Origin: a virus | Taxonomy: Duplodnaviria > Caudoviricetes | Length of the DNA stretch: 64,000 nt | IMG/VR virus record: IMGVR_UViG_3300048561_000027 | Coordinates: 146 to 64,145 of that record | Strand: one strand, 5' to 3' | Shown here: in pieces, positions 7,946 to 36,728 of the stretch | Numbering within the stretch: the stretch's first letter is position 1 | Layout: every line of letters begins with the position of its first letter | The notes under the pieces: model-generated | The model's database searches: none | Told to the model about the DNA's origin: nothing | What the model saw: only the letters and a program-made list of their open reading frames with translations | Made by a program: the position numbers and the translations under genes

Positions 7946-8257
7946 ATGACTACAAAACCCAGTATTAATTTTATCAATAACTCCTGGATTATCAAATATC
8001 AAGATCGGTTATATCCAGTTATCACGGACGGTCAGGGCCGATACTTTACTGATCTAAGCAAATGTGAACCCCCCATTGATCGCGATACAGTAGCCCCATT
8101 TCAGTATCTATCCTGTGATGCCGAACACAAGGCTATTAAAAAATTGATCGCGAATAAGAAAAAATCCCTAAAGGCGAAACTACGAGATAAAGCTATGCAA
8201 AGCCTTGGGCTGACGAAAGTTCGCGGTGCCGTATCGGGTCGAATTTATTGGGAATAA
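7946..8257 (+). CDS. Early-region hypothetical protein
   Basis: ORF with GAGG RBS; ends in TKVRGAVSGRIYWE. Confidence 0.65.
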   Translation: MTTKPSINFINNSWIIKYQDRLYPVITDGQGRYFTDLSKCEPPIDRDTVAPFQYLSCDAEHKAIKKLIANKKKSLKAKLRDKAMQSLGLTKVRGAVSGRIYWE

Positions 8258-8263
8258 TACGGC

Positions 8264-8292
8264 TTGACTTTATCAAGTTAAAAAGATAATCT
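8264..8292 (+). promoter_or_regulatory. Sigma70-like promoter overlapped by palindromic operator-like motif
   Basis: TTGACT-N17-TAATCT; ACTTTATCAAGT overlaps the -35 box. Confidence 0.5.
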
Positions 8293-8440
8293 TTTAATCA
8301 AGTTAGTCTTAATCGGAGTATGTTTAATATGAACACAGATATGAGGGAAGAAGTGCAAAAAATCGCACAAGCAACCTTTGATCATTACATTAATAAATCC
8401 GATTACAAATTAATCACGCCGAACTAAAGGTATTTATATC

Positions 8441-8901
8441 ATGAAAACTTTTTTATTTTTTGTTGATTATACGGATTGTGGAGATGGTTGGGCGTTAGTT
8501 GCTGAAGCGGACACCGTAGAAGAACTTTTACCTCTTTATAATAGTTCAGGTTATAATAATTCTAATAAATTAATTGTTACAGCAGTAGCATATACAATCA
8601 CGATCAAATCTATAATGGAGTATTCGCCTTTAGAATCCACAGGAAACAATTCAGGAGTATAAATAAAATGCCGCAACCCAATATTAGAGACACCTATAAT
8701 CAGGACATGATGGAAAAATTCCATATCTACCACAAATCCCGATCGAACTTGTACCCAATCGAATACGGCATTGTTCGTGCCAACGCGAACAGTACGCGCG
8801 ATCAAGTTTTGCGGATCTGGAATAACGGACACCCGGATATTTTTCATCTTAATCCAGCCGATCCTGGCGTTATCGTTACCAGTCTTGATTTGACGAATTA
8901 A
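8441..8901 (+). CDS. Two small early hypothetical proteins (8441-8662, 8668-8901)
   Basis: Consecutive same-strand ORFs. Confidence 0.55.
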
Positions 8902-8915
8902 CAGGAGACTAAATC

Positions 8916-9422
8916 ATGTCAACAATTAAACTTGAAATTTCCGCCGCTAATCAAAATAAAGTTATCTTAACTGGTGTTGATCTGGATTGTGACGACACCT
9001 TACAAGATGCCGTAGAACGGGAATTTTCATTTGAGGAGTTCACGGATGAACAACAAGCGGAAATTTTGGAAGCCCTTGAAGACGGCGATTATATTATTCT
9101 CGCAAGTGATGGTTTAGTCGGGTCATTTGTCAATGCGGGGATCTTAGATGACGCTTTTTTTGAATGTCGTGATCACGATCTAGATGAGGCTGTGAAACAG
9201 GCATGGTTAGATAACGGCATGGAATGGGATGCAGATCAAATCAACGAAGCCTATCAAGGCCGATTTAATTCAGACGCCGACTTTGCCCGTGATTTGTGCG
9301 ATCAAATAAGGGCCATCCCGGATGATTTTCCATCATGGATAAGTATTGACTGGTATCAAACGGCTAAAGATATTATGATGGATTACTTCGAAAGCAACGG
9401 GCATTATTTCCGAAACCTTTAA
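8916..9422 (+). CDS. ardA: ArdA-like antirestriction protein (acidic DNA mimic)
   Basis: Highly acidic; C-terminal AYQGRF.SDADFA...IP...IDW..TAKD.MMDYFESNGHYFR matches the ArdA pattern; AGGAG RBS. Confidence 0.75.
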   Translation: MSTIKLEISAANQNKVILTGVDLDCDDTLQDAVEREFSFEEFTDEQQAEILEALEDGDYIILASDGLVGSFVNAGILDDAFFECRDHDLDEAVKQAWLDNGMEWDADQINEAYQGRFNSDADFARDLCDQIRAIPDDFPSWISIDWYQTAKDIMMDYFESNGHYFRNL

Positions 9423-9497
9423 AGGAGTTTAAATTATGCGATCATTTACAGGTCACGTTGTCGGTAAAGAACGACAATACCAAATTAGGCGGACGCT

Positions 9498-9674
9498 ATG
9501 TGTCAATCCTGTGATGTATTAGTAATAAATGGCGTATTGTGTCATGAACTAGGTTGTCCCGATAAATGGCGGGACGAAATGCGCGAATGTAAATGGTGCG
9601 GACAAGATTTTAAACCAGAATCCAGAATTGATCAGTTTTGTTCCGACGATTGCCGTGAATTCTATAATACTTAA
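9498..9674 (+). CDS. Small Cys-rich (Zn-finger-like) protein, 58 aa
   Basis: Not in ORF track; MCQSCDVLVINGVLCHELGCPDKW...CKWCGQ...FCSDDC. Confidence 0.6.
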   Translation: MCQSCDVLVINGVLCHELGCPDKWRDEMRECKWCGQDFKPESRIDQFCSDDCREFYNT

Positions 9675-9691
9675 ATAAGGATCTGCTCAAA

Positions 9692-10244
9692 ATGACTAAC
9701 ATAGATGTAAGTGATCGATTCATAAGTGCTACCTACAATCCATTTCAACGTAAGATTTATATTACCCTGCAAGGCGACTCTAACGATTATGAATGGAGCT
9801 ATGATTGCACCCAAGTACCAAATAAAGATCACAAGATCGTGATCTGGCATTGTCGGAGTTCGAGTTCGCACTTGTTAGACGCGAATTTACTTAAAATGCA
9901 CGTAGTTAACCGCAAACATTGGAGGTAACGCCATGACTAGGGCACAGAAAAGACAGTTTCATAAAAATTTAATAACACCTGAATTTGAGACTTATCTGTT
10001 TCAACAAGCTAAGACGGCTAAAGTAACTCGGACTTTTTCCGCGGCTGTGGCTTTTCCGGTTTACGCCAAACAATACTATTTTTATAAGGCATTTTGGCGT
10101 TACGTGGCGTTTTGTCGTTTGTGTAAACAAGCATACGACAATAAACATTCTACCTTTAATTGTTTGGCTTCCCAGATCAAACAATTAAAAAATGACCTGA
10201 AAGGTTGTGCGGATGAATTGTATTTAGCAACAAGGGGCGTATAA
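9692..10244 (+). CDS. Two early hypothetical proteins (9692-9928, 9933-10244)
   Basis: Consecutive ORFs with AAGGA / GGAGG RBS. Confidence 0.55.
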
Positions 10245-12966: not shown

Positions 12967-13168
12967 ATGAAGTTGTCAAATTGCCGTAATTGATCTATAC
13001 TTTTACTTGCTTGAGTTGTACAATAGAAGATATTAAAACCAAACCTTAAGAGGTGATTATTATGAAGCGTTAATCATTTGAAATTATATATTTGAATTAA
13101 ATACTTTGAAGGATTGTGATAGTTGAGTAAGTTAAAATAAGGAATAGGCGGTTCTGTAGGGAAGTGCG

Positions 13169-13201
13169 CCCCGGTGAGAAGGTTCCTCACCGGGGTTTTT
13201 C
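13169..13201 (+). terminator. Rho-independent terminator ending the early block
   Basis: CCCCGGTGAG-AAGGTTC-CTCACCGGGG followed by a T run. Confidence 0.9.
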
Positions 13202-13384
13202 ATTTTACCCCTTAGCTTAATCAAGTTCGTTTAAATTAATTTTGATAAAATTGCAATTTTAGGACTTTATTAAGTAAAGTGCATTAGTGTAGTAATGCAC
13301 TGATACAGTTAAGTCGTTGTTTTTATGTGAATTGGTGCTAAACATGGATGCGGTCATACTTTGGAGTCCGGTATTGTTTTAATA

Positions 13385-13431
13385 CAACATTTAATCAAGA
13401 CAACATTTAATCAAGACAACATTTAATCAAG
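13385..13431. repeat. 16-bp tandem repeat x3
   Basis: CAACATTTAATCAAGA x3 (last copy 15 bp). Confidence 0.95.
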
Positions 13432-13722
13432 TTTGATTTTATGAACTCGGGCTATGAGATCAATCTTGTGTTTCCCGTCCCGGAGAGTCATAGTTGATTA
13501 AGTGAATGTCAAAAGGTCAAGACTTGATGAGTTCCTAGCAGATCCTGGCAACTTGATCAAGTTTGGCGATCACTTCATATCCAATTATCGACTCTCCCCT
13601 CATTGGAGTATAGATGATTGGAGCTAAAATTAATTATAAAGCCCTACACACCACGATTTGATCAGACCCCTCACTACCACACTACTTTATTTCAAAAATT
13701 GCCACAATCAATCCACGTTTCG

Positions 13723-13821
13723 AAAATCTTGGCCCGTTGCCCCTCTATCGACCTCTGAAAATCTTGGCCTGCTAGGTTTGTATTGGCCCCAAAATCTTGG
13801 CCCGATAGGTTTGTATTGACC
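13723..13821. repeat. Three degenerate copies of the 6.8-kb 33-bp repeat
   Basis: AAAATCTTGGCC at 13723, 13758 and 13791; third copy AAAATCTTGGCCCGATAGGTTTGTAT. Confidence 0.9.
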
Positions 13822-13889
13822 TCAAGCCTTTTTTCCAGGTCAAAATCTGTAGAAAATCAGATTGTTGCCCATCAAACAATTTTTCAAAG

Positions 13890-13990
13890 TTATCCACAGC
13901 TTTATCCACAAGTGGTATTTTCGCAACAGCAGTTGTTTATAAGTCACGACGTTGTAATTTCACAACTTAACTTTACACAGCTTATCCACA
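13890..13990 (+). promoter_or_regulatory. DnaA-box cluster (left)
   Basis: Perfect TTATCCACA at 13890, 13902 and 13982. Confidence 0.8.
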
Positions 13991-14052
13991 AGCTATGCAC
14001 TGCAGTTGTTTTTTGTTCTTGTGTTGTCTTAATTAAGCCAATACACGATGCT

Positions 14053-14186
14053 TTAATACAACACTTGCTCAAGCCTGGAGTGAAAGCAGCAAGCTGTATC
14101 AAGTGGTATTAATACAACACTTGATCAAGCCTGGAGTAAAGGCAGCAAGCTGTATCAAGTGGTATTAATACAACACTTGATCAAGC
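14053..14186. repeat. 56-bp tandem repeat x2.4
   Basis: TTAATACAACACTTG(C/A)TCAAGCCTGGAGT...GCAGCAAGCTGTATCAAGTGGTA at 14053, 14109 and 14165. Confidence 0.95.
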
Positions 14187-14227
14187 TGATGGATTGTCTT
14201 TGTCAAGTCTGGAATTGACGACAATTA

Positions 14228-14477
14228 TCTTGATCAAGTTATTGGCATGACCTTTGCTTATTAACTATATTAAGCTAGACAACTAACTTAATCAATTAAG
14301 GCATGGTATTTGCTTGATTAAGTTAATGTCACTTAATTAAGACAATTCAGATTTAATTAATTAAGTCAAGGGCTTTACAATTATATTAATCAAGTGATTA
14401 GAATTTAATCACTTGATACAGTTATTGGCATAAAATGTGCTTATTAACTTAATCAAGTAATTGGCATAGTCCTTGCT
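14228..14477 (+). promoter_or_regulatory. Four tandem sigma54-type -24/-12 elements, each preceded by a palindrome
   Basis: TGGCA-N6-TTGC at 14243 and 14462, AGGCA-N6-TTGC at 14299, TGGCA-N6-GTGC at 14426. Confidence 0.6.
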
Positions 14478-14565
14478 ACGTGCGCACGTGCGCGATATTT
14501 ATTTGCATCTTAGCTTGATACAGTTTAGAATTTAATCACTTGATCAACTAATGGGAGTATCGGAC

Positions 14566-14844
14566 ATGAACATCAGAATGCTTAAATCGACAAATCGCGC
14601 AGAATTAGCGCGAGTTCCTTTCCGCGACAAAATCGCGCTGTGTTTGGTCCCGATCATGGTATTGACGGGCTTTCGATTTTCCAAAGCGTTTCGGCAAGCG
14701 GAGAATGGCTGGAAAAAATTGATCTACACCCTGATCAATGTCGTATTGGCGAATGTGCGATCCGACATGATCGCATATAGGATTGCAGTAAAAAATTACA
14801 ATGATGCCAGCGAATTTTTGCTGGCGCTTAAATCCAAACAATAG
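14566..14844 (+). CDS. Hypothetical basic protein, first gene of the GATC-rich operon
   Basis: GGAG RBS; ATG at 14566. Confidence 0.6.
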   Translation: MNIRMLKSTNRAELARVPFRDKIALCLVPIMVLTGFRFSKAFRQAENGWKKLIYTLINVVLANVRSDMIAYRIAVKNYNDASEFLLALKSKQ

Positions 14845-14854
14845 GAGATCAACC

Positions 14855-16621
14855 ATGTACCAGACACAAAAAGCAAACGGCTTGCACAAACTCCAGAAGG
14901 CCGATTTACGGACCGGGAACTTTTGCATTTTAAAAAATGCCGATTTGCAAAGGATCATTCAGTTTTATAGTAGTTATGGCTTTATTGATTCTTTTTACAC
15001 GTCAATCCATTTTCCCAAATTTTTCCGTCCCTGTCCCCTGCGCCCCCGGCATGGATTTGTCAACTCACGAGTCTGCAATAATCGCGAGGAATTGATCGAA
15101 TTGATCCAAGAAACTCTTGCGCATGACGAAGAGGCTGAAATGATCGTTATGCCGTTGATTGATGCTGATCTGAGTGCAGTCATAACTAAATCTGGTATGA
15201 CTGTCGGATCTGGATCGGATGGCGCTACATCTGGATCAAATCAGACGTTGCAATGGTCACTGCATAGTGACCTGAATTGGTTAAGCGAGCATGTAGGCAT
15301 CACTAACGATCTGTTTTTGGAAACCCTCTTGTCTGATCGAATCTTGTATTATGTACAGGCTCGCGATGGTGTATTACCTGATGCCTTACGATCTGATGCT
15401 TGGATACCCGCTGATCTGACCGTGACCTGTCTGATCGATGTTGCGACATATGATGATGCAGGGCCAGCTTATGAGAGCGCGATCCAGAATGCGCCCCCTG
15501 GATCGGTTTTAATCCATCGCGGCGGAACAATGCTGTCACATTGGGCACAACATGCAATAGTCAAAAAAATCCCGATCATATTCGATGATCGGGATATAAA
15601 GATCGGTGATCAATTAGTCGCGAATGTCGCCTTAACTGATTATGTCGATCATCGCGATGCCCTGATGCAAGGTATTCAATACGGCATGACGTGTAATCTA
15701 TTTGATAACACATACGATGTTATGCAGATCGTTTTATTGACCTTGCACAATGCCATGACTCTGCGCCATACCGCACATGGGTCAACCATGATCGGATTCG
15801 CTGCGTCGGCTTTATTGCGGTATTCATATGCGGCGATCCTTGGCGAGATTAGACACCTTAAAAAAAGACATAAACAAGAGCGCCATGAAATTTTTTCCGA
15901 CACGTTGAGATCCTTTGATGATTTTCTCGATTGCCGAAAAAAGATTACCGATAGCCGGAACAAATTCTTTACTCGGAAATGGTCGTGCGGGTATGGCGGA
16001 CAATCTTGGGGCAATTGTAGTCAGGCGGCCAAACAACTCGAACATGCTTTACTGCAGGTGGTTAGAGAAAAAAGTTATAACCAGCAAGCCATCAATGACT
16101 TGATCTTAAAATCTCATACAGTGATCAATTGTGCGCATAACAATGGACCTTTTCTGGATAAATTCACATCATCGAATTTTTTCGATAGCGCCGCACACGG
16201 GTTATTCACATGGATGGTTGAGACAGGTTATAAACTGCATACGTTTTATCTATCGCAGTTTTTCGGCATTTCGCATCCCATCAATCTAGCTCCCTGGATA
16301 CACTGCAAGGTGCATTTAGCAGTCAATCCGGTACGGGGTAAACGTTTTAAATGGGGTACACTGATCTTGCAATTTAATCGGCGTGATTCTGTTTTTCATT
16401 TTCAATACGGTCAATTGCACCACTATAAATCCTGCACGATTGATCCAGCTAATTTTACCGATCAAGATCGGGAATTTTTGAATCAGGAATTGACATTATC
16501 GCTAGTAAATTCTCTCGCCAATACCGAACGACTCTATCGGAAACTGACTAAGACAACTTTTGAAATGCTATCAGCCGATTTGCAAAAGTATTTGATCCTC
16601 AATCTCGCAAATCTCGCATAA
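14855..16621 (+). CDS. PEP-utiliser/dikinase-like protein: ATP-grasp-like N-terminus, phosphohistidine swivel domain, unknown C-terminal domain
   Basis: GSGSDGATSG and YYVQARDG resemble the PPDK-type ATP-grasp; HRGGTMLSHWAQHAIVKKIP resembles GGxTSHAAIVAR; AGGAG RBS. Confidence 0.65.
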   Translation: MYQTQKANGLHKLQKADLRTGNFCILKNADLQRIIQFYSSYGFIDSFYTSIHFPKFFRPCPLRPRHGFVNSRVCNNREELIELIQETLAHDEEAEMIVMPLIDADLSAVITKSGMTVGSGSDGATSGSNQTLQWSLHSDLNWLSEHVGITNDLFLETLLSDRILYYVQARDGVLPDALRSDAWIPADLTVTCLIDVATYDDAGPAYESAIQNAPPGSVLIHRGGTMLSHWAQHAIVKKIPIIFDDRDIKIGDQLVANVALTDYVDHRDALMQGIQYGMTCNLFDNTYDVMQIVLLTLHNAMTLRHTAHGSTMIGFAASALLRYSYAAILGEIRHLKKRHKQERHEIFSDTLRSFDDFLDCRKKITDSRNKFFTRKWSCGYGGQSWGNCSQAAKQLEHALLQVVREKSYNQQAINDLILKSHTVINCAHNNGPFLDKFTSSNFFDSAAHGLFTWMVETGYKLHTFYLSQFFGISHPINLAPWIHCKVHLAVNPVRGKRFKWGTLILQFNRRDSVFHFQYGQLHHYKSCTIDPANFTDQDREFLNQELTLSLVNSLANTERLYRKLTKTTFEMLSADLQKYLILNLANLA

Positions 16622-16634
16622 AGGAGTGTATAAA

Positions 16635-17366
16635 ATGACTATCAAAAAAACTAAGGGTAATAAAAAATCGGCGAAGGCCGCGCCGATTGAAAAAGCGGCT
16701 CTTACCAGTCCTCCAGTAATTGTCAAAGGATCAAAAGATTTTGAATCCGCGTTTAAACAACGTGAATTTAAAATCTGCGTCCATTCGGGCAATGTTGCGG
16801 TTATGCAAATTCGCGGAATCACGATCTATGGCGCTAAACTGGATCAAATCAGTGATTCAGATTCACGACTACTGTTAAACTGCTCGGGCTCGGATCTGGC
16901 AAAAAATCTGATCACTGTCCCGGACAATTATTCCAATCTATTAACTCAAACGTATGCGCGCAGAGTGATCAATATGAACTGGCGAGATCAAGGCATTCCG
17001 GCAGTAAAGCCTGAATTCTGGATCGCCTTGATCGATGCGATGATCGCAAATAATGATCACGATCTAGTGATCTTCTGTATTGGCAGTCATGGCCGGACCG
17101 GAACAGCAATGGCGAGTTTGATTATTGCCAATCTAGGATTGTCCGCCAGCGATGCGGTAAATTTTGTCCGCAACAGGCATTGCGCGCAATGTATCGAGAG
17201 TGATGCACAGATCCGTTATCTGCAACGTCTCGCCAAGCATTTCAATTGTTCGAGCGATGCCGATAAAAATCTGACGGGGTCTTATTCCGCAAGATTCGAT
17301 AGCAAATATAACGATCTGGATCGTTATGCCGAGATATCCAAATATTACACACAAGGGGATCAATAA
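16635..17366 (+). CDS. CX5R protein-tyrosine/dual-specificity-type phosphatase
   Basis: VIFCIGSHGRTG P-loop, upstream WRDQGIP, downstream CIESDAQIRYL; AGGAG RBS. Confidence 0.85.
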   Translation: MTIKKTKGNKKSAKAAPIEKAALTSPPVIVKGSKDFESAFKQREFKICVHSGNVAVMQIRGITIYGAKLDQISDSDSRLLLNCSGSDLAKNLITVPDNYSNLLTQTYARRVINMNWRDQGIPAVKPEFWIALIDAMIANNDHDLVIFCIGSHGRTGTAMASLIIANLGLSASDAVNFVRNRHCAQCIESDAQIRYLQRLAKHFNCSSDADKNLTGSYSARFDSKYNDLDRYAEISKYYTQGDQ

Positions 17367-17489
17367 ATGTCATACAGACCCTGCAACTTCGATTTTTCCA
17401 GACGATTGGATCAAATGGATCATCAACGATCAGTTATGCGAGTGGTTCGCATGATCGGATTGATCACGATTGTGTTGCTACTGATCTGA
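17367..17489 (+). CDS. Small protein with hydrophobic C-terminus, 40 aa
   Basis: ATG adjoins the preceding stop codon; ends MIGLITIVLLLI. Confidence 0.45.
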   Translation: MSYRPCNFDFSRRLDQMDHQRSVMRVVRMIGLITIVLLLI

Positions 17490-17512
17490 TTTGAGTTAAT
17501 CAACTAAGGATC

Positions 17513-17539
17513 AAGGGCGGGGGTATCCCGCCCTTTTTA
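17513..17539 (+). terminator. Rho-independent terminator
   Basis: GGGCGGG-GGTAT-CCCGCCC-TTTTT. Confidence 0.9.
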
Positions 17540-17552
17540 TTTGGGTCTTCAA

Positions 17553-17816
17553 GCCCTACGCCCTACGCCCTACGTCCAGCCCTACGCCATACGTCCAGCC
17601 CTACGTCCAGCCCTACGTCCAGCCCTACGCCCTACGTCCAGCCCTACGCCCTACGTCCAGCCCTACGCCCTACGTCCAGCCCTACGCCCTACGTCCAGCC
17701 CTACGCCCTACGTCCAGCCCTACGTCCAGCCCTACGTCCAGCCCTACGCCCTACGTCCAGCCCTACGCCCTACGTCCAGCCCTACGCCCTACGTCCAGCC
17801 CTACGCCCTACGTCCA
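17553..17816. repeat. 264-bp array of 7-mer GCCCTAC (x12) and 12-mer GCCCTACGTCCA (x15)
   Basis: Parsed manually: 12x7 + 15x12 = 264; one 12-mer variant (GCCATAC...). Confidence 0.97.
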
Positions 17817-17902
17817 GCACTAGATTTAGTATGTAAAGCAAACCGACACTACACAAGGACAAAAAACCACAAGTAAGTTATAAACAACACGTGGGGATAT
17901 GC

Positions 17903-18087
17903 TGTGTATAACTATTCGTTTGAGTCCCAATAGTTGTTTTCAGCCCACAATGGTTAATTTTTGACCAGTTCGGTGTGGCTTTTATCCGACAGCGTTGTTT
18001 TTATCCCTAATCGCTGTGACTTATACCCAACTGCGGTGCATAACCTGTTGATATCGTGGGGATTTCCTGTGGATAAGCTGTGGGTAA
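17903..18087 (-). promoter_or_regulatory. DnaA-box cluster (right, opposite orientation)
   Basis: TGTGTATAA 17903, GGTGCATAA about 18035, TGTGGATAA 18068, TGTGGGTAA 18079. Confidence 0.7.
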
Positions 18088-21292: not shown

Positions 21293-21904
21293 TCACGCAC
21301 CAGGTCCATATGAATCCAAATCGTCCCAATCATTATTGGAAGTACGGGCGGGACTATCCAATAATAGCGCGTACTTGCCTGGACTCCACGACAACGGGGG
21401 ACTGGCTTCCATAGCAGCATTAAAGACGTTTATGGTGTTTACTAAATAATCCGGCGCGTCCTCGCCTTCAATTAAGACATCTTTAAAGTAATTAACGTCA
21501 ATACGGGCACGTTCGGGCTCACAAACACGCAAATTTAAGCTGCTCAATGTCTGGCCTTCTTCTAAATCATCCTCTGCCTCACCTGGACTGCTATAAAAAC
21601 GCTCCGTGGTCTCCGAATACAGCATAGCTACACCATCCCACTCTTTTTTAAGTCTGGAATCAAAACACTTTTGATCTAATAGTTCACAACAGTCATCACA
21701 AACCATATGAGATTTTACACAAGGCTTTCCACAGTTTTTACAACCCACATGAGTACAGCCGTCATATCTAGCCATGTCTTCTGCGGAACTGCCAGTACCA
21801 TAAAAATTGCCGTGTCTGGACACCCAACCACTAAGTCCGGTTTGGAATGTCGCGGCTTCCGGGTCATCTAGCATAACAATGGTATTTTTAATGTTCATAA
21901 TCAA
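21293..21904 (-). CDS. Hypothetical protein, paralogue of 22186-23070
   Basis: Shared TGLSGWVSRHG...ARYDGCTHVGCKNCGKPC...PPLSWSP. Confidence 0.8.
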   Translation of the reverse strand: MIMNIKNTIVMLDDPEAATFQTGLSGWVSRHGNFYGTGSSAEDMARYDGCTHVGCKNCGKPCVKSHMVCDDCCELLDQKCFDSRLKKEWDGVAMLYSETTERFYSSPGEAEDDLEEGQTLSSLNLRVCEPERARIDVNYFKDVLIEGEDAPDYLVNTINVFNAAMEASPPLSWSPGKYALLLDSPARTSNNDWDDLDSYGPGA

Positions 21905-22185: not shown

Positions 22186-23070
22186 TTATTTAAGACTCTT
22201 TAAACAATCAGGTGGCCACTTCCCTTCCGCTTTCAGTCTAGCAATTTTCCGTATATTGTAATTCTCAGTCTTCTGCTCAATTTCGTCCACAGTGTCGTGG
22301 TTAAAATCGATATGACAAGTATTGCAACACCGTTCGCCGTCGTCGCCGTACAAAAAATGCTCTTCATTGCCATGACCAATGAATAATAGATGACGCAATT
22401 TCTTTTCTTTTACTTCGCTCATATTCTCAGTCGTTTTGGCGGTTTTCTCTTCGGTTTCAGGTTTTAATGCACTGGGTCCGTATGAATCAAGATCATCCCA
22501 ATCATTATTGGGCATACGTGGGGAACTGTCCAATAACAGCGCATATTTACACGGACTCCACGATAACGGTGGATTAGCCTTCATAGTGGCGTTAAAGGCG
22601 TTTATAGCATTTAGTAAATAATCCGGCGCGTCCTCATCTTCAATTAGGATATCCTCAAAATCATCAACGTCAATACGGGCGCGTTCGGGCTCACAAATAC
22701 GTAAATTTAAACTATGCAATGTCTGGTCTTCCGCTAAATCATCTTCGGCCTCCTCCGGACTGGAATAAAAGATCTCTTTAGATTCCGAATACAACATCGA
22801 CACTCCATCCCATTCTTTTTTGGGTCTGGCATCAAAACGCTTTTGATCAAGCCTTTTACTACAGACATCACAAGCTGTGTAAGACTTCTGGCAGGGCTTT
22901 CCACAGTTTTTACAACCCACATGAGTACAGCCGTCATATCTAGCCATGTCTTCTGCGGAACTGTCGTCCCCATAAAAACGTCCGTGTCGGGACACCCACC
23001 CACTTAAATCGGTCCGGAATGTCGCGGCTTCCGGGGCATCTCGCATAACAATGATATTTTTAGTATCCAT
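22186..23070 (-). CDS. Hypothetical protein (longer paralogue with extra C-terminal domain)
   Basis: 294-aa ORF. Confidence 0.8.
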   Translation of the reverse strand: MDTKNIIVMRDAPEAATFRTDLSGWVSRHGRFYGDDSSAEDMARYDGCTHVGCKNCGKPCQKSYTACDVCSKRLDQKRFDARPKKEWDGVSMLYSESKEIFYSSPEEAEDDLAEDQTLHSLNLRICEPERARIDVDDFEDILIEDEDAPDYLLNAINAFNATMKANPPLSWSPCKYALLLDSSPRMPNNDWDDLDSYGPSALKPETEEKTAKTTENMSEVKEKKLRHLLFIGHGNEEHFLYGDDGERCCNTCHIDFNHDTVDEIEQKTENYNIRKIARLKAEGKWPPDCLKSLK

Positions 23071-23092: not shown

Positions 23093-23787
23093 TCATTTAA
23101 TCAAGTCATTAATAGCTGCCGCAATGCTAATATAGGTGGGTTTGATGTCATGTCTGACCTCTATTCCATCTGGAGTTTTTATCAAAAACGTTCCGTTGCG
23201 TTCTTGATCACTTAAATCCTTCGTCCAATTACGACCTATTGTAAACAACATTTCGTGCATGGCTGCTGTGTTTTTATTATGTAATTCCCGATGTGAAAAA
23301 AAGATCGGCAATACATTTGCAAACTGTTGCGTTGCCAATCCTGGGCTCGCCACAGCAAGGCATTAACCACGTCTTCTTTAGGTACGTTAAAAACTCTACT
23401 ATCAAACACTTGTAAAGCTCCAACATTACCTAACATCGAATAAAACCGATTAAACTCTACTGACATCGTGGCCGCGCTTATAGAAATTAACTTATTTAAA
23501 TCATAGCCAAACCAGCCTTGCGTTTCTAACGTGTCATAATCGGTAAGGACAAAACTGGCTTCATCACTTTGCACATACGCACATTTAAATCCCTGCATAT
23601 CAAACGCGGTTATTTTAGCCGCCACTACCATAGCTTGCATCAAAGACTTATCAAAAGGTTTTCCACACATTCTAGTAAACGTATGAAAATCCCGCCCGTC
23701 TACTCTAATCATTACAGGCATTCTAGGCATGGCTTGTCTGGCCATTACAGCTTCGTATTGTTTAATCCGATTGCCTAAATTTGACAT
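23093..23787 (-). CDS. thg1: tRNA(His) guanylyltransferase Thg1-like, split by a -1 frameshift at a T7 run (23296-23302)
   Basis: IRVDGRDFHTFT, YVQSDEASF, FDSRVF, WRAQDWQRNS in one frame; FFSHRELHNKN...GRNW...NGTF continues in the -1 frame. Confidence 0.9.
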
Positions 23788-25437: not shown

Positions 25438-25514
25438 TGGTACGTCTGATCAGATTCGAACTGATACTTAACAGGGCTTAAACCTGTTGCCTCTACCAAT
25501 TGGGCCACAGACGC
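25438..25514 (-). tRNA. trnL: tRNA-Leu (anticodon UAA), short variable loop, encoded CCA
   Basis: GCGTCTG acceptor, ACAGG-TTTAAGC-CCTGT anticodon arm, ATCAG-TTCGAAT-CTGAT T arm, ACCA end; 77 nt. Confidence 0.9.
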
Positions 25515-27511: not shown

Positions 27512-29131
27512 TTACACCGCAAAGGGGTAGTTTATTTTTTCATGATGGCGGTAACTGTATATCTCAAAGTCGTCTGTAGTTACCCAGGTTTCCAAATCTT
27601 TAAGAGTCCTTATGTCTGGATTAATGCAAAGTTTTGGAAGCTCATAGGGAATCCTACGCAGTTGCTCCTTCATCATCGCAATTTGATTTTCATAAATATG
27701 AATGTCGTGCATGAAGTGGGTGAAAATTCCCGGTTTTAAACCCGTTATATGAGAGATTACGGATAACAGCCACGCATAACCGGCAATATTGAAGGGAACT
27801 CCTAATGGTAGATCGCAAGAACGTTGATACATGGACAGGTTTAAATACTCACCCTCAATTCCGAACTGTAGAAGTACGTGACAACAAGGCAAAGCTTGTT
27901 GGTCTAATTCAGTGGGGTGCCACCCGGTTATAATTAATCTTCGATCATCCCTACGTAATAAAAGTTTTGCTACTACAAGTTTTAGTTGATCTTCTTCTGT
28001 ATAATAAAATTCTATTTGGGAAGGTTTAAAAGTCCAACCTTTGTGTGTTTTACAAGTACCATTAACACAATGTTTTACCATATCCGCAGACAAACCATGC
28101 TCCTGTGCAAAAACTTTACTTCCACGACCACAATATTCTTTACCATCGGGGGATATCCCAATAAAAGATTGACACTGTTTAGAATTTACCGCTTGTTCAA
28201 TTTTAGATGCCCATCTACAAGTAGTTACATCATAAACATTAGCCAGAGTAATATCTTTATCTAAACTGAATTCATGCGGAAAACACTCTTTTAGTTCCCA
28301 TCTGGGAATTTTTTTATAGTCATTAACAAAATTTTCAAACACTAACCATTTATCAGATACTTTAATTCCACAATCTTTATACCATTTATTATTATCTCTA
28401 TTTTTTCCATAACATCTATGGATCATGTCATGCCAAGTTTCATATAATTTATCTACATCCTTTTTCTCTACCATTCCACGGCAGGCAACATTACAAATGT
28501 TGGGAGCATAAGGATCTTTTATAAAACCATGACATAATTGACTTTTCTGAACACCCTCTTTAATGTATAATGTTTTAAGGAATTGAATATTAAATAAAAG
28601 ATGTTTTCCAATTTCCGGTCTATATTCTTTATAAACTACATAAGGTTCATCAGATTGGGTTTGAAAAATTTTACCCACGAATCCACTTTTATTTTGTGTT
28701 AAATCAATCTCTTGTTTTTTATATATTATAGGTAATTCTGGTATACCAGATATCGAAGGTAAAACATCTAAACTTTTTCGTTCCTGCCAATTTCTCCATT
28801 TTCTCCACCGAACTCCATAAATCCTTCCTAAATCATCCTCACCCTTCCGATTTGGATTTAAAAACCATTGCTGATTTTCATTGGCATTTTGGTCCCAGAT
28901 TTTACACCCCAATGATCTAAACTGACTAGCGTTATCATAGCCCCGCAAAAATCCCAGCATTTCAGCAAAGCAGGTCCGCCACGCCATTTGTTTAGTCGTA
29001 ACCAAAGGGAATCCATCGCGTAGGTCAAATTTCATCATATCGCCGTGATAACCTATATGATCAATCCCGGTACGATTGGATTTTTTTGTACCCACCAAAG
29101 CTTTCTTACAAATTTCCTGATATTGTTTCAT
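27512..29131 (-). CDS. thyA: Thymidylate synthase with in-frame HNH-endonuclease-like insertion
   Basis: FPLVTTK, LGRIYG.RWR, LPCCH, YQRSCDLPLGVPFN, DIHIY; about 268-aa segment (27992-28795) between WRKW and DQL. Confidence 0.95.
   Translation of the reverse strand: MKQYQEICKKALVGTKKSNRTGIDHIGYHGDMMKFDLRDGFPLVTTKQMAWRTCFAEMLGFLRGYDNASQFRSLGCKIWDQNANENQQWFLNPNRKGEDDLGRIYGVRWRKWRNWQERKSLDVLPSISGIPELPIIYKKQEIDLTQNKSGFVGKIFQTQSDEPYVVYKEYRPEIGKHLLFNIQFLKTLYIKEGVQKSQLCHGFIKDPYAPNICNVACRGMVEKKDVDKLYETWHDMIHRCYGKNRDNNKWYKDCGIKVSDKWLVFENFVNDYKKIPRWELKECFPHEFSLDKDITLANVYDVTTCRWASKIEQAVNSKQCQSFIGISPDGKEYCGRGSKVFAQEHGLSADMVKHCVNGTCKTHKGWTFKPSQIEFYYTEEDQLKLVVAKLLLRRDDRRLIITGWHPTELDQQALPCCHVLLQFGIEGEYLNLSMYQRSCDLPLGVPFNIAGYAWLLSVISHITGLKPGIFTHFMHDIHIYENQIAMMKEQLRRIPYELPKLCINPDIRTLKDLETWVTTDDFEIYSYRHHEKINYPFAV
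27992..28795 (-). mobile_element. In-frame HNH (AP2/NUMOD-associated type) endonuclease-like domain inside thyA; no intein termini
   Basis: TWHDMIHRCY, Y...GIKVSDKW..FENF, SLDKD, CRWAS..EQAVN, HKGWTF; boundaries approximate. Confidence 0.75.
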
Positions 29132-30399: not shown

Positions 30400-31632
30400 T
30401 TATCCTTTTATGTTTATTATTTGATGTAAGGTATGTTTAATACTTACCAAATCAGACTGATTTTCCATTACTTCATCAATGTTTTTATATGCTCCGGGAA
30501 TTTCATCTAAAACATGATCTTCTTTACAACACTCTATTCCTTGAGTTTGTTGTTTAAGATCCTCTACCGAAAACATCTTTCTAGCCTTAGTACGACTCAT
30601 TTTACGCCCCGCTCCATGTGAACATGACATAAAAGAATCCGGATTCCCCTTACCTTGTACAATATAAGTACGAGCCCCCATAGAGCCTGGAATAATTCCC
30701 AAATCCCCTTCTCTGGCGCGTATTGCGCCCTTTCTAGTCACCCAAACATTTTGTTTAAAATGATTTTCTAAGGCCAAGTAATTATGTTGGCAATCAATAG
30801 TCTCTAAAGTTTTCACTCTGTAATTTAAACAATCCTCAAATGCTACTCTAACAGCCCATAACATTATATCCCTGTTTGCGCGAGCATACGTTTGCGCCCA
30901 CATTACGGCATTGATGTAATTTGTAAAGTGTGAGGATTTATCTGGCAAAAAGGCCAGATTTCGATCTGACAGTTTTATAAACCAATTGTCCATTTCTTGT
31001 TTTGCCAAATCAATGAAAAAAGCGCCGATTCTATTCCCAATTCCCCGACTACCAGAATGCACGACACACCAAACTTGGTTGTTTTCGTCAAGGCAGACTT
31101 CAATAAAATGATTTCCTGTCCCAAGAGTTCCCAAATGTTCCCAAGTAGCTTGTTTTGTCGAAAATAATTTTGAGTAAACATTTGTTAAATGATTAAAATT
31201 TGGAGTTTCTAACTCATGCCATGCCCTGCTAACGATTAAATCGAAGGATACCTTACTTAATTTTTCTTGCGTCCAGCGTCCACAATCACTTGCTCCGCCA
31301 TTATCGGATCGACCATGCGGTACATAGTATTCTATACTGGTACGTAATTGAGAAAGATTCGGCAATTGATCAGCGGTAAGATCGAGCTTAATTGCTTGCA
31401 TACCACAGCCCAAATCAACCCCAACCGCTGCTGGGATAACCGCGTGTTGTGTGGGAATTACCGATCCAATAGTAGCCCCGGCTCCCGCATGTACGTCGGG
31501 CATACACGCAATGTGTTTATAAACAAAAGGCAATTCCGCACAGTTTTTTAGTTGCTGAACGGCCTCTTCCTCAATGTCTTCTGTCCAAATTTTAATGGGA
31601 CATTTCGCATCTATTACTGTTTTAATCGACAT
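30400..31632 (-). CDS. rtcB: RNA-splicing/repair ligase RtcB
   Basis: MPDVHAG, VGVDLGCG, LGTGNHF, HSGSRG, HNY, RKGA, SHGAGR, DEIPGAYK. Confidence 0.97.
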   Translation of the reverse strand: MSIKTVIDAKCPIKIWTEDIEEEAVQQLKNCAELPFVYKHIACMPDVHAGAGATIGSVIPTQHAVIPAAVGVDLGCGMQAIKLDLTADQLPNLSQLRTSIEYYVPHGRSDNGGASDCGRWTQEKLSKVSFDLIVSRAWHELETPNFNHLTNVYSKLFSTKQATWEHLGTLGTGNHFIEVCLDENNQVWCVVHSGSRGIGNRIGAFFIDLAKQEMDNWFIKLSDRNLAFLPDKSSHFTNYINAVMWAQTYARANRDIMLWAVRVAFEDCLNYRVKTLETIDCQHNYLALENHFKQNVWVTRKGAIRAREGDLGIIPGSMGARTYIVQGKGNPDSFMSCSHGAGRKMSRTKARKMFSVEDLKQQTQGIECCKEDHVLDEIPGAYKNIDEVMENQSDLVSIKHTLHQIINIKG

Positions 31633-33151: not shown

Positions 33152-34786
33152 TTACTCCTTAGCATTATACATTAATCGTGATCGTATCTTATAAAAACTA
33201 TCATCTACTAATAATTTTCCGTCTACAAACACTGATTTTAATTCCCCGAAAACCTCGGTACTTCGTGAAACTCGATCTATCATTACCAATTGATTTTTCA
33301 GTCCTTTTTCAACATATAACAACCCTCTCGCGGAAATTTTAGTTCCGTCATCTGTTATTGGAGCTTTAAAGATTTCCCGCTCTGCCCCCTTAACTACTCC
33401 ATAAGTTGACTTTATTGCCATACCATGTCCGTCCCTAGTTTGATATTGATACGTGTAACTGCCAATTCCAAACACCACATTGTTAGAAGCAAAGCCTTTT
33501 TCTTTCAGTCGTTTTAGGATTAACTCGGCACGTTCCAGAGTTATAGAATCCCCATAAATAAGCCCGACATGGCTGTCTAATACTTTGTATCTCTCTACAG
33601 AATTATCTTTATGTCTAACAGCGTAAGTTCCGCCAAAAATATTCCATAAACACTGTACCGCCCCCGACACTTCAGCGGTAGACAATTCTTTTCCTGTTTG
33701 TAAACAAAAATTTCTTCCATCCTCTGATGTATAAGCTTCATACCCTTTATTTAGCCACTCAGATTTAGTAAACAAAGGTAAAAATTGAGATGGAACCAAC
33801 TTATATCCGGTAATTATTTTAACCGGATCCCCACTATCCGGCCTGAACACAACTCGGTCTATTTTATTTGGGTCTCCGGAATTCCTGGCTAAAATGTCAT
33901 TTTTAAGTTCAGCCGCATATTCAGTAATGACTTTCCAAAAATCCCATGTGTCAGAAACAATGCTGATTATTCCAGTCGGATATAATTTTGTAATGAGACG
34001 TTTGAACGTCTCAATTTCAGCTTCTTTTGTCCCCATACACATAACGGAATGTTCGGTCGCTGGTACGGAACACCCAATCAATTCTTTTTCCGCGTTTCCG
34101 TTGTAGTACGTTTCTACATAATCAATCGCTGGAATAGTGTCAGTTCCAACAAATGAAGTTAAATGGGCGGCTCCCGATGTGGCGGCATCAAAAACTCCCG
34201 ACATTCCACGAAATGAAAAATCGTGCCCTTGAAATACCACGCCTTCTTGTGGAACTCCGGTTTCATCGGCATATTTAGACAATATCTTTTTATACTGATA
34301 TGCCATTGTTGCGTTGGTAATGGGTTTCCACAACTCCGAACTTAACACTGTTTCCAAATAATTCGTAACCCAAAAAAAATCCGGGTGTGTTGAGGCAATG
34401 GTTAGCATCGGGACTCCGTGTGGCACAAGGGAGCCCTCTGGTAACGCTTTTATTTGTATGGGTAAATACTGTAAATCATGAAGAGCTTCAATGTGGTCAA
34501 CTGAAACCACATTGGGTCCGAGAGAAGTATCCATTCTACGTTTATAGGCGGCTACAACAACGTCTTTTGGTTTATTAAAAAACTCGTTGTTCCAACAATC
34601 AATTAAAAACCACTTAATAAATCCCTGTAGTCCAAAAAATACCACACGATGATCGCTATCGGCAAATTTGGCATATTTATCAGACCTCGCAGTTAGGTTT
34701 GAATACACCATAGAAGTGCCTTCTGGATATTGAAAAATATGTCCAGTTTTGTAAAAATCTGTTGCCATCAAAGGATTGATTTTCAT
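33152..34786 (-). CDS. Nicotinamide phosphoribosyltransferase family (Nampt/Namat-like)
   Basis: TDFYKTGH, HDFSFRG, SVPATEHS, VSDTWD, RPDSGDP, IYGDSIT, FGIGS. Confidence 0.95.
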   Translation of the reverse strand: MKINPLMATDFYKTGHIFQYPEGTSMVYSNLTARSDKYAKFADSDHRVVFFGLQGFIKWFLIDCWNNEFFNKPKDVVVAAYKRRMDTSLGPNVVSVDHIEALHDLQYLPIQIKALPEGSLVPHGVPMLTIASTHPDFFWVTNYLETVLSSELWKPITNATMAYQYKKILSKYADETGVPQEGVVFQGHDFSFRGMSGVFDAATSGAAHLTSFVGTDTIPAIDYVETYYNGNAEKELIGCSVPATEHSVMCMGTKEAEIETFKRLITKLYPTGIISIVSDTWDFWKVITEYAAELKNDILARNSGDPNKIDRVVFRPDSGDPVKIITGYKLVPSQFLPLFTKSEWLNKGYEAYTSEDGRNFCLQTGKELSTAEVSGAVQCLWNIFGGTYAVRHKDNSVERYKVLDSHVGLIYGDSITLERAELILKRLKEKGFASNNVVFGIGSYTYQYQTRDGHGMAIKSTYGVVKGAEREIFKAPITDDGTKISARGLLYVEKGLKNQLVMIDRVSRSTEVFGELKSVFVDGKLLVDDSFYKIRSRLMYNAKE

Positions 34787-34799
34787 AATTGTATCTCTG

Positions 34800-35660
34800 T
34801 TATATCCAGGTTAATGTAGTTAATTTATGAATATACTTTTCATTGTACATTCCAAATTCTTTAGCAGTGTCAGTTTTGTCCCCGAGTGAATCAGTAGTGT
34901 AGATGTTTCCAAAATTAGAAAATACTTTCAAGCCTTTACTAAAGATTCCATGTGTTACATATAAATCGATTGTGACTGGCTTTAAAGTCCGCAATAGTTT
35001 TTCTAATTCAATAAAAGTTCTTCCACCATCACAAATATCATCAACGATTAAAAAAGACTTGTTTGGAGGTATCTCGGAATAATCAAAATCCAAACTGCTT
35101 GTTATTTTGCCAGTTTTTTGGTCTCGTGTTTTTGAAGCAAAAACTACGGGTTTTTTTAAGGTGTTTGCAACATCTATAGTTTTATTTCGGGCTCCGTGAT
35201 CTGGACAAACTATATAATCATAGTTAGTAAATAAATGTTCGTGTTTACCGATGACATTTACTTGGGGTATTTCACTTACATTGTTCAATAAATCTAACGT
35301 AGCTTTGCTATGTACATCACAAACTATGACTAAATCAAAATTTAATGAGTTAATCAAATCGGCGAACACTTTAATAGAACAAGCCTCACCTTCATGACAA
35401 ACTCGATCTTGTCTAGCATATGGTACGTAAGCTAGTTTTAACACACAATGTCTTGGTTTAATTAATAAATTCTCTAAGGCGTTTTTACTTAAAAGAAGAG
35501 CTAACAAATCATCGCTGTTGTTTATAATAGTGTTAAAAATAAATGTCCCAGTTGTGGTATTTTTTAAATACTTAACTGGAAGGGTTACATTTACTTCACC
35601 GCCTGGAAAGACAGTAACTTCTACCGGATGTTTGTTAATTGTTAACATAAACGCTCCCAA
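34800..35660 (-). CDS. Ribose-phosphate pyrophosphokinase family (Prs/Adps-like)
   Basis: FPGGE, YVPYARQDR, DVHS, PDHGA, IVDDICDGGRTF, LYVTHGIFS. Confidence 0.95.
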   Translation of the reverse strand: MGAFMLTINKHPVEVTVFPGGEVNVTLPVKYLKNTTTGTFIFNTIINNSDDLLALLLSKNALENLLIKPRHCVLKLAYVPYARQDRVCHEGEACSIKVFADLINSLNFDLVIVCDVHSKATLDLLNNVSEIPQVNVIGKHEHLFTNYDYIVCPDHGARNKTIDVANTLKKPVVFASKTRDQKTGKITSSLDFDYSEIPPNKSFLIVDDICDGGRTFIELEKLLRTLKPVTIDLYVTHGIFSKGLKVFSNFGNIYTTDSLGDKTDTAKEFGMYNEKYIHKLTTLTWI

Positions 35661-36516: not shown

Positions 36517-36592
36517 TGGTGCCGGACCTTCGACTTGAACGAAGAACCCGGAGTTTACAAAACTCCCGCTCTGCCAATTGAGCTAATCCGGC
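36517..36592 (-). tRNA. trnT: tRNA-Thr (UGU)
   Basis: GCCGGAT acceptor, GGAGT-TTTGTAA-ACTCC anticodon arm, TTCAAGT T loop, ACCA end; 76 nt. Confidence 0.95.
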
Positions 36593-36650
36593 TGCTAAAA
36601 TCACTTAATAAAGTGATTTTGTAACTCCTTCCACTCATGGTGGATCAAGC

Positions 36651-36728
36651 TGGTCTGAGAGGTAGGATTTGAACCTACGACCTCTTCCTTCCAAGGGAAG
36701 TAATCTACCCTGACTGATATACTCTCAG
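36651..36728 (-). tRNA. trnP: tRNA-Pro (UGG)
   Basis: CTGAGAG/CTCTCAG acceptor, CTTCC-CTTGGAA-GGAAG anticodon arm, GTAGG-TTCAAAT-CCTAC T arm, ACCA end. Confidence 0.95.

Follow-up and report, generated by a model that had tools for sequence, protein, structure and literature searches.

Two adjacent genes of the IMG/VR phage record IMGVR_UViG_3300048561_000027, here called A and B, appear from sequence comparison and structure prediction to encode a swivelling-histidine (swivel-His) dikinase with a new acceptor domain and its obligate protein tyrosine phosphatase (PTP) partner. The stretch that was analysed (the window) comprises 64,000 nucleotides, positions 146 to 64,145 of that record, and all coordinates below refer to it. 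A and B are inseparable across very diverse phages. The literature on the pair yielded annotation-level mentions only, with no functional study found. The two genes and the domains of A are as follows.

14855..16621, + strand: gene A, 588 aa; ATG at 14855 preceded by AGGAG
14855..15388, + strand: A residues 1–178, compact ATP-grasp nucleotide-binding domain (VIA, Foldseek, conservation)
15389..15640, + strand: A residues 179–262, putative swivelling phospho-histidine domain, a small beta/alpha unit with HRGGTMLSH(229)WAQHA (conservation, hhalign, ESM Atlas)
15641..16270, + strand: A residues 263–472, all-helical 'ERH / GYGGxxW / HNNG..NK' domain, presumed acceptor site (model, fold searches, conservation)
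16271..16618, + strand: A residues 473–588, variable beta-rich C-terminal domain, mildly basic (DSSP strands 503–529)
16635..17366, + strand: gene B, 243 aa from its ATG (start set by the AGGAG position)

Gene A belongs to a large family without a domain model

Both open reading frames (ORFs) lie where the first-pass annotation of this DNA had placed them, and A carries every motif that was quoted from it: LSHW (S228-H229-W230), WSCGYGGQSW (376–385) and HNNGPF (428–433). Relatives of A amount to 943 representatives at 50% identity (E ≤ 1e-3; 1.84 billion searched), 391 of which fall below 1e-30; relative P0004 is 64% identical. The AlphaFold2 model of A, computed with the family alignment as input, reaches a predicted local distance difference test score (pLDDT) of 92.3 and a predicted template modelling score (pTM) of 0.85. 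With 943 relatives and a fold predicted at this pLDDT, the A and B ORFs are not chance. The conserved core spans residues ∼ 50–460.

The family forms ∼ 940 clusters at 50% identity and has no Pfam, PHROG, NCBIfam or PADLOC model. Pfam found no domain in window A and a single zinc ribbon as its sole match in 81 aligned members, and PHROGs, NCBIfam and PADLOC were blank for A and many of its homologues. A sequence profile of A matched nothing in the PDB at E ≤ 10, and a structural search of BFVD returned ATP-grasp matches only. Among the 150 best representatives there is no fusion of A to B, and a search of its own for such fusions or other architectures longer than 1205 aa came back empty.

The N-terminal half of A resembles a dikinase engine

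The first-pass annotation had proposed an ATP-grasp domain followed by a phospho-His-type motif. On the predicted structure the former is present, and it is of the PPDK/RPH type. VIA aligned 169 of residues 1–178 with rifampin phosphotransferase (RPH) 5hv1 at Z 12.9 (root mean square deviation 3.2), far above generic ATP-grasp ligases, which makes RPH-Lm (5HV1/5FBS; PMC4844700) the best structural match; maize PPDK (1vbg) followed at Z 7.6. Foldseek likewise matched phosphoenolpyruvate (PEP) synthase (PEPS, 2ols), RPH and PPDK. Residues R58, H66, G118, T125, E156, Q168 and R170 of this domain are invariant and K6 is near-invariant (conservation in A was judged throughout on 81 aligned members).

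Residues 179–262 probably carry a phospho-His domain. H229, the His of a GGxxxSH motif, and H233 are invariant (81/81), and when the family was aligned by hhalign with two independently gathered PpsA/PPDK alignments, the catalytic His paired with H229 both times (P 0.007 and 0.0085, or ∼ 0.008). The alignment is collinear, with VQxR of A (168–170) falling on the LQxR motif of the PpsA/PPDK grasp domain and the GGxxSH catalytic motif following it, and the order grasp, His, acceptor is that of PPDK and PEP synthase. In the ESM Atlas the nearest named clusters are PPDK_N plus PEP-utilizers proteins (feature score 0.91; TM 0.52 over residues 1–261). Three results weigh against a dikinase assignment for this half of the protein: the Pfam model PPDK_N (PF01326) misses window A, PEP-utilizers (PF00391) finds nothing in the His unit at E ≤ 10, and hhalign lends the His domain marginal support (probability ∼ 5%).

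The helical domain is conserved and has no assignable solved relative

For the third domain of A the first-pass annotation could name no relative, and our searches agree: the helical domain is conserved and can be assigned to no solved structure. Residues 263–472 are modelled as helices only, with pLDDT > 90, and a separate model of residues 176–588 again scored 92.3. This domain holds the most distinctive motifs of the A family, G-E331-x-R-H, W-x-x-G-Y-G-G-x-x-W and H428-N-N-G...K436; E331, G381, G382, W385 and H428 are invariant, and H298, R333, H334, R343, N429 and K436 nearly so. Searches of the PDB with residues 176–588 (Foldseek, exhaustive VIA and a second VIA look) gave nothing specific, with a best Z of 6.8, and barely sampled the C-terminal beta domain. 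HEPN-like and hemerythrin-like candidates turned up for the helical domain and were distrusted as generic helical bundles at Z ≤ 6.8. Its protein-language-model neighbours carry PF27448 (Rph_4th) at scores of 0.86–0.88, which we treat as a lead only; RPH is absent from the structural matches of the domain in the PDB searches.

A PEP/pyruvate TIM barrel (PF02896) was not seen: residues 263–472 are all-helical, and Pfam matched the barrel neither in the window protein nor in 80 homologues. Because the helical domain fills the position of that barrel, A is not a PPDK or a PEP synthase. Both the helical and the C-terminal domain are basic, the latter with a median net charge of +5.

Gene B encodes a predicted Cys-based phosphatase

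The B ORF opens at a GTG (16626), from which B residues are numbered here. Directly after the TAA stop of A lies an AGGAG, 8 nt before the ATG at 16635, so this ATG is most likely the start. A family profile built from 50 homologues, on which conservation in B was judged, matches 277 solved PTP or dual-specificity phosphatase (DSP) sequences in the PDB (best E 1.5e-12), led by small archaeal or atypical PTPs (SsoPTP, TkPTP, DUSP23/VHZ) and the classical receptor PTP domains, in line with the PTP/DSP-type enzyme read from the sequence at first pass. The P-loop of window B is CIGSHGRTG (CX5R); C151, G156, R157 and G159, shared by 50/50 homologues, align with the P-loop of solved PTPs. The three loops, namely a WPD-type loop with D121 (consensus DWPD), the P-loop C151-x-G-G-H-G-R157-T-G and a Q-loop V-E191-T-x-x-Q195, are all invariant, and D121 and E191/Q195 align with the WPD and Q loops of RPTP epsilon and sigma. 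From these aligned, invariant elements B is predicted to be an intact Cys-based phosphatase of the PTP superfamily.

Unlike the solved enzymes, B has a variable N-terminal extension of its own, often basic or Cys-rich, and many homologues carry Cys-rich extensions; the window copy has a Lys-rich tail. Window B also falls below the Pfam cut-off (22.5 versus 27 bits), whereas larger homologues pass PF22784. It matches PHROG 17568, named 'thymidylate synthase', at 1.9e-16. Two CX5R phosphatases of Stenotrophomonas phage DLP5 (L125, 5468–5938 and 6993–7781) were deposited as 'thymidylate synthase' / 'thyX', which accounts for the name of the PHROG; it appears to be a mis-annotation.

A and B travel together

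A survey of co-occurrence, on which the first-pass annotation had staked its pairing of the two genes, found A and B together in every judgeable related locus. Fifty-six of the 57 related IMG/VR loci could be judged, the remaining one ending inside A, and in all 56 a B homologue lies within ∼ 1.2 kb of A. In 52 loci it follows A directly on the same strand, and in four, three of them near-identical, it lies upstream. The median gap between the two ORFs is −4 nt, the window's own pair included, and the loci that carry the pair range from 31 to 72% GC. All-against-all clustering of neighbours revealed no third gene in more than six loci; occasional neighbours are a RapZ-C-like protein, an SNF2 helicase, a PD-(D/E)XK nuclease, an AAA_25 ATPase and TerS. 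The pair is also adjacent in 4/4 bacterial genomes (two Acidobacteriota, one Chloroflexota and Salinarimonas), a number that is a floor since these copies were found by a restrictive degenerate DNA pattern. Their neighbours give no clear prophage signal.

The RapZ C-terminal-domain-like protein (PF22740, 2.3e-16) stands immediately upstream of the dikinase gene in three loci (L008, 5553–6008; L011, 5409–5828; L020, 5427–5813) and at another position in a further two. Possibly it serves as an accessory partner that binds RNA or sugar phosphates.

Cultured phages carry the same parts as separate proteins

A tblastn search with two fused-type A proteins against 50,697 phage genomes returned only four uncultured 'Manatee Spring' records, and a word-index search found no short stand-alone helical-domain proteins. 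The parts are nevertheless present in cultured phages. Vibrio phage vB_VneS_J26 was published as 'PPDK-encoding' (PMC12038007), and its block reads, in order, 'PPDK' (691 aa), a small protein, 'PTP' (182 aa), a 'membrane protein' (337 aa), 'pyruvate decarboxylase' and DNA polymerase A. The helical-domain part of the A profile hits the 337-aa protein (HMMER 1.4e-7; hhalign 92.7%, E 4e-7), in which ERH, GGxxWA and HNNG..NK are kept. The B profile matches the J26 PTP, its one B-type phosphatase, at 1e-16. The J26 'PPDK' has PPDK_N and PEP-utilizers and lacks PEP-utilizers_C (PF02896).

Rhodobacter phage RcZahn and Stenotrophomonas phage DLP5 share the J26 arrangement, with two B-type phosphatases flanking the helical protein; the longer of the two carries a CIGGHGRT loop and resembles window B over its full length (E 1e-26 to 1e-28). 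Stand-alone helical proteins occur in 41 records of cultured phages (Vibrio, Stenotrophomonas, Rhizobium and Rhodobacter; SIO-2 and VHS1 among them). Their surroundings were inspected in three of these (J26, RcZahn and DLP5), and in each the helical protein adjoins a canonical PPDK_N plus PEP-utilizers protein without the pyruvate barrel. The gene for DNA polymerase A lies a short way downstream of the split module in the phages of Vibrio, Stenotrophomonas and Rhodobacter.

Thus the same three functional parts, a dikinase engine, a homologous helical domain with its three motifs and a B-type phosphatase, occur fused in the window and split in cultured phages. The split block differs from the window in its separate proteins, in an engine that Pfam detects by PPDK_N and PEP-utilizers, and in its fixed place upstream of DNA polymerase A. 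Since the split engine is unmistakably a swivel-His dikinase, it lends independent support to our reading of the N-terminal half of A, and the split arrangement marks the helical domain as the partner of that engine. This residue-level connection between the fused and the split form is new in this analysis.

Layout and expression of the locus

The window comes from a phage contig of 64,145 bp that CheckV rates as 66% complete, with terminase, portal and capsid genes and numerous genes of nucleotide metabolism and counter-defence; its TerL is at most 34% identical to those of cultured phages. A and B lie in a single transcription-unit-like block that runs from terminator through leader, 97-aa ORF, A and B to a second terminator.

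13168..13196, + strand: strong intrinsic-terminator-like hairpin that ends the upstream unit (11-bp stem, 8 GC pairs, T-run)
13200..14550, no strand: non-coding, repeat-rich leader of 1.35 kb (16-nt and 56-nt direct repeats, repeat families D3–D14)
14243, 14299 (1 mismatch), 14426 and 14462 (span 14243..14477), + strand: four sigma-54-like repeats (−24 GG / −12 GC), TGGCAT-N5-KTGCT (pattern search)
14551..14844, + strand: small ORF, 97 aa, in the same unit as A and B (ORF list, GGGAG resembling a ribosome-binding site, covered by RNA-library contigs)
17368..17490, + strand: possible ORF, 40 aa, with a hydrophobic tail and a start that overlaps the B stop; coding status uncertain (sequence reading)
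17513..17535, + strand: strong terminator-like hairpin that closes the operon (10-bp stem, 7 GC pairs, T-run)

The leader contains TTGATCAAG palindromes, AAAATCTTGGCC repeats and three DnaA-box-like words, TTATCCACA, at ∼ 13890–13990; its 16-nt and 56-nt repeats are iteron-like, and by its sequence it looks like a possible origin or regulatory hub. The first-pass annotation also spoke of dedicated unusual promoters. The elements are there, as three exact copies and one near copy of the sigma-54-like repeat within 235 bp upstream and no exact copy elsewhere in the 64 kb, but their role as promoters is putative and is read from the pattern. The 97-aa ORF gave no match in Pfam and PHROG searches.

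The stretch occurs in bioreactor metagenomes, and in three metatranscriptome runs RNA-library contigs span the operon from ∼ 14428–14538 to ∼ 17600, although contigs cannot define transcript ends. No such contigs cover the leader at 13452–14371, yet a DNA run covers that region at similar depth. The leader is in effect an internal silent control, and the contrast speaks for in situ transcription of the operon. We favour the reading that the small ORF, A and B probably form a three-gene, early-type operon between terminators, which would be a self-contained phosphoryl-transfer module.

The operon also lies within an island of GATC sites (14100–17510), with 65 GATC in 14001–18000 (∼ 16 per kb) versus ∼ 3.5–5 per kb elsewhere. 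Gene A has 31, against 18.4 ± 2.8 in synonymous-codon shuffles (maximum 29 of 2000), and gene B 17, against 11.5 ± 1.9. Codon choice is skewed towards codons that form GATC (GAT 52 : GAC 5; ATC 35 : ATT 17), unlike in the structural genes, and a cluster of seven GATC lies between 17409 and 17512, six of them inside the possible 40-aa ORF. The island points to selection at the DNA level, perhaps for Dam/SeqA-type regulation or as a restriction decoy. As a property of the module the enrichment was rejected, being present in the window and in one other locus (L010) only. Immediately after the operon terminator (17541–17835) follows a tandem array in which a 19-nt unit, CAGCCCTACGCCCTACGTC, recurs ∼ 15 times, some copies being 12-nt variants; the 111-aa 'ORF' that spans the array is probably not genuine.

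A possible mechanism and its acceptor

By analogy with PPDK and RPH, we infer the following course for the reaction. ATP would bind in the grasp domain of A, and His229 would attack the beta-phosphate to yield AMP, Pi and His~P (pyrophosphoryl or beta-phosphoryl transfer). The small His domain would then swivel towards the helical domain, where a second active site, made up of E331/R333/H334, the GYGGxxW loop and H428-N-N-G..K436, would pass the phosphate to a hydroxyl acceptor. B would remove that phosphate, or one elsewhere on the same molecule, via a thiophosphate intermediate formed on Cys151, D121 acting as the general acid.

Such a writer and eraser acting on one site would burn ATP futilely, which speaks against pairing them in this way. 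A transient action on a polymer, or one at two sites, is favoured because a same-site cycle wastes ATP. Two precedents, glucan-water dikinase (GWD) with SEX4 and T4 Pnkp, pair such activities productively. A and B may thus be coupled in some other way, by acting at separate sites of a single polymer, by phosphorylating it transiently or by forming a relay.

It is possible, if not probable, that the acceptor is a polymer or a replication-linked molecule (DNA, RNA or an associated protein) that is transiently cycled, and not a central metabolite. Several observations point this way, none of them decisive: the synteny with polymerase A, the basic helical and C-terminal domains of A, the Cys-rich extensions of B, and the DNA of Stenotrophomonas phage DLP3, which is reported to withstand 15 restriction enzymes although no modification was identified in it (PMC7326821). 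DLP3 carries the split module. A paper on glycosylated 5-hydroxycytosine that names 'DLP3' is irrelevant here, as it concerns an Acinetobacter phage of the same name.

More specifically, A could be a new type of macromolecule-directed dikinase whose swivelling phospho-His puts phosphate on phage or host DNA, or on a hydroxyl (possibly of tyrosine) of a replication-associated protein, with the dedicated PTP removing or trimming it, as a step in an undescribed pathway of DNA hypermodification or replication control that shields phage genomes from restriction. We consider this elaboration unlikely, if worth stating. Three points loosen the link to DNA. Common descent of the three groups of cultured phages may account for the polymerase A synteny, further candidate genes for modification are present in DLP3, and no replication gene is a consistent neighbour of the fused form.

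Alternatives to a polymer-directed cycle

The joint need for both activities would be explained if they healed ends at two sites in the manner of T4 polynucleotide kinase-phosphatase, with A phosphorylating, for example, the 5′-OH and B stripping, for example, the 3′-P of the same broken nucleic acid. PTP-fold enzymes that act on RNA ends are known, and here a kinase-type and a phosphatase-type enzyme co-occur obligately. A gene of the RNA ligase family lies ∼ 1 kb from the pair in a Chloroflexi locus (L075), and the window phage has tRNA repair genes in the form of RtcB, a Thg1-like enzyme and three tRNAs. However, a ligase is not a recurrent neighbour across the 56 viral loci, RtcB requires no end-healing, and Pfam recognised no nucleic-acid-binding domain in A or B. 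We judge end-healing quite unlikely.

Of about the same low likelihood is a small-molecule dikinase in the style of RPH or phenylphosphate synthase, by which A would activate or inactivate a host or competitor molecule, such as an antibiotic-like compound or a signalling nucleotide, and B would recycle or proof-read. RPH is the closest structural relative of the A ATP-grasp domain and shares its three-part logic, an ATP-grasp, a small phospho-His carrier and a mostly helical acceptor domain without homologues. The second site of RPH is a Glu/Arg pair on a helical sub-domain (PMC4844700), which the invariant E331 and near-invariant R333 echo; the Rph_4th language-model neighbours and the counter-defence-type genes of the window region (ArdA-like; NAMPT-like with PRPP-synthetase-like) fit as well. 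Against this, three PDB searches matched the helical domain of A to no RPH structure, the His domain is C-terminal in RPH and central in A, and the grasp domain has ∼ 310 residues in RPH versus ∼ 178 in A. RPH has no phosphatase partner, and a resistance-type enzyme would need no obligate one.

Reversible phosphorylation of a polysaccharide would account for the obligate pairing without futility. To our knowledge, plant GWD with SEX4/LSF2 is the sole established productive cycle of a swivel-His dikinase and a CX5R phosphatase, and with laforin these enzymes make up the only characterised system in which the two act on one substrate. A and B would, in that style, loosen a host polymer (glycogen, capsule or wall) for degradation. 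Yet Pfam found no carbohydrate-binding module or other domain in A, in 90 A homologues or in 10 long B homologues, and no glycoside hydrolase occurs in A, B or recurrent neighbours. The plant enzymes are genetically unlinked, whereas the module keeps the company of phage replication and early genes. We regard this explanation as improbable.

No more probable is a relay or self-regulation, in which the Cys of B takes the phosphate from His~P of A, as in the bacterial phosphotransferase system (PTS), or B resets or regulates phospho-A with the helical domain itself as acceptor. His-to-Cys relays exist in the PTS, translation of the two genes appears coupled (the ribosome-binding site of B abuts the A stop), and the helical domain offers the strictly invariant H428 and the near-invariant H298 and H334. 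B nevertheless keeps the general-acid Asp and the Q-loop of hydrolytic PTPs, and the two B-type phosphatases of split forms would be odd for a simple relay.

An ordinary auxiliary metabolic gene (AMG) for phage PPDK or PEP synthase, interconverting pyruvate and PEP, is hardly credible: the partner gene is labelled 'pyruvate phosphate dikinase' in GenBank and in papers on Vibrio, Stenotrophomonas and Rhodobacter phages, but those labels rest on annotation, homology and docking only, neither window A nor the J26 'PPDK' has the PEP/pyruvate barrel, which in A is replaced by the unrelated helical domain, and PEP synthesis offers no function for an obligate PTP partner. What A does share with these enzymes, beyond domain order, is that its helical domain partners a bona fide PPDK_N plus PEP-utilizers protein in the cultured phages.

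Other features of the window

On the minus strand at 33152–35660 lie adjacent NAMPT-like (544 aa, phrog_448) and ribose-phosphate pyrophosphokinase-like (286 aa, phrog_619) genes, which we take to be phage NAD+ reconstitution pathway genes and which likely have a counter-defence function. A thymidylate synthase homologue (27512–29131, minus strand; Pfam 2.6e-77) is a 539-aa ORF with an HNH / I-HmuI-like endonuclease segment in its midst, which was probably inserted as an intein-like element or an in-frame homing endonuclease. A tRNA maintenance kit is spread over 23236–23787, 30400–31632, 25438–25514 and 36517–36728 and comprises a Thg1-like tRNA-His guanylyltransferase, an RtcB ligase and tRNAs Leu-TAA, Thr-TGT and Pro-TGG. 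The gene at 8916–9422 encodes a weakly ArdA-like anti-restriction protein (phrog_14321, 4.9e-8; Pfam ArdA 0.005, below cut-off) and lies inside a second GATC-enriched stretch (23 GATC in 8001–10000). Two phrog_11053 paralogues (21293–21904 and 22186–23070, minus strand) stand ∼ 280 bp apart on the same strand.

Significance

Swivel-His dikinases are rare, and each known one is chemically distinctive, acting on pyruvate, starch, rifampin or phenols. The pair described here runs through ∼ 940 phage protein clusters, over 31–72% GC, without a family model. Two recurring mis-annotations are corrected along the way, the 'PPDK AMG' and the 'thymidylate synthase' given to phosphatases. Now that the fused form is connected to split ones in culturable phages of Vibrio, Stenotrophomonas and Rhodobacter, the question can be addressed by bench experiments. 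A phage-specific branch of the dikinases whose acceptor domain is new and whose phosphatase is obligate points to a transaction between phage and host that has so far gone unrecognised.

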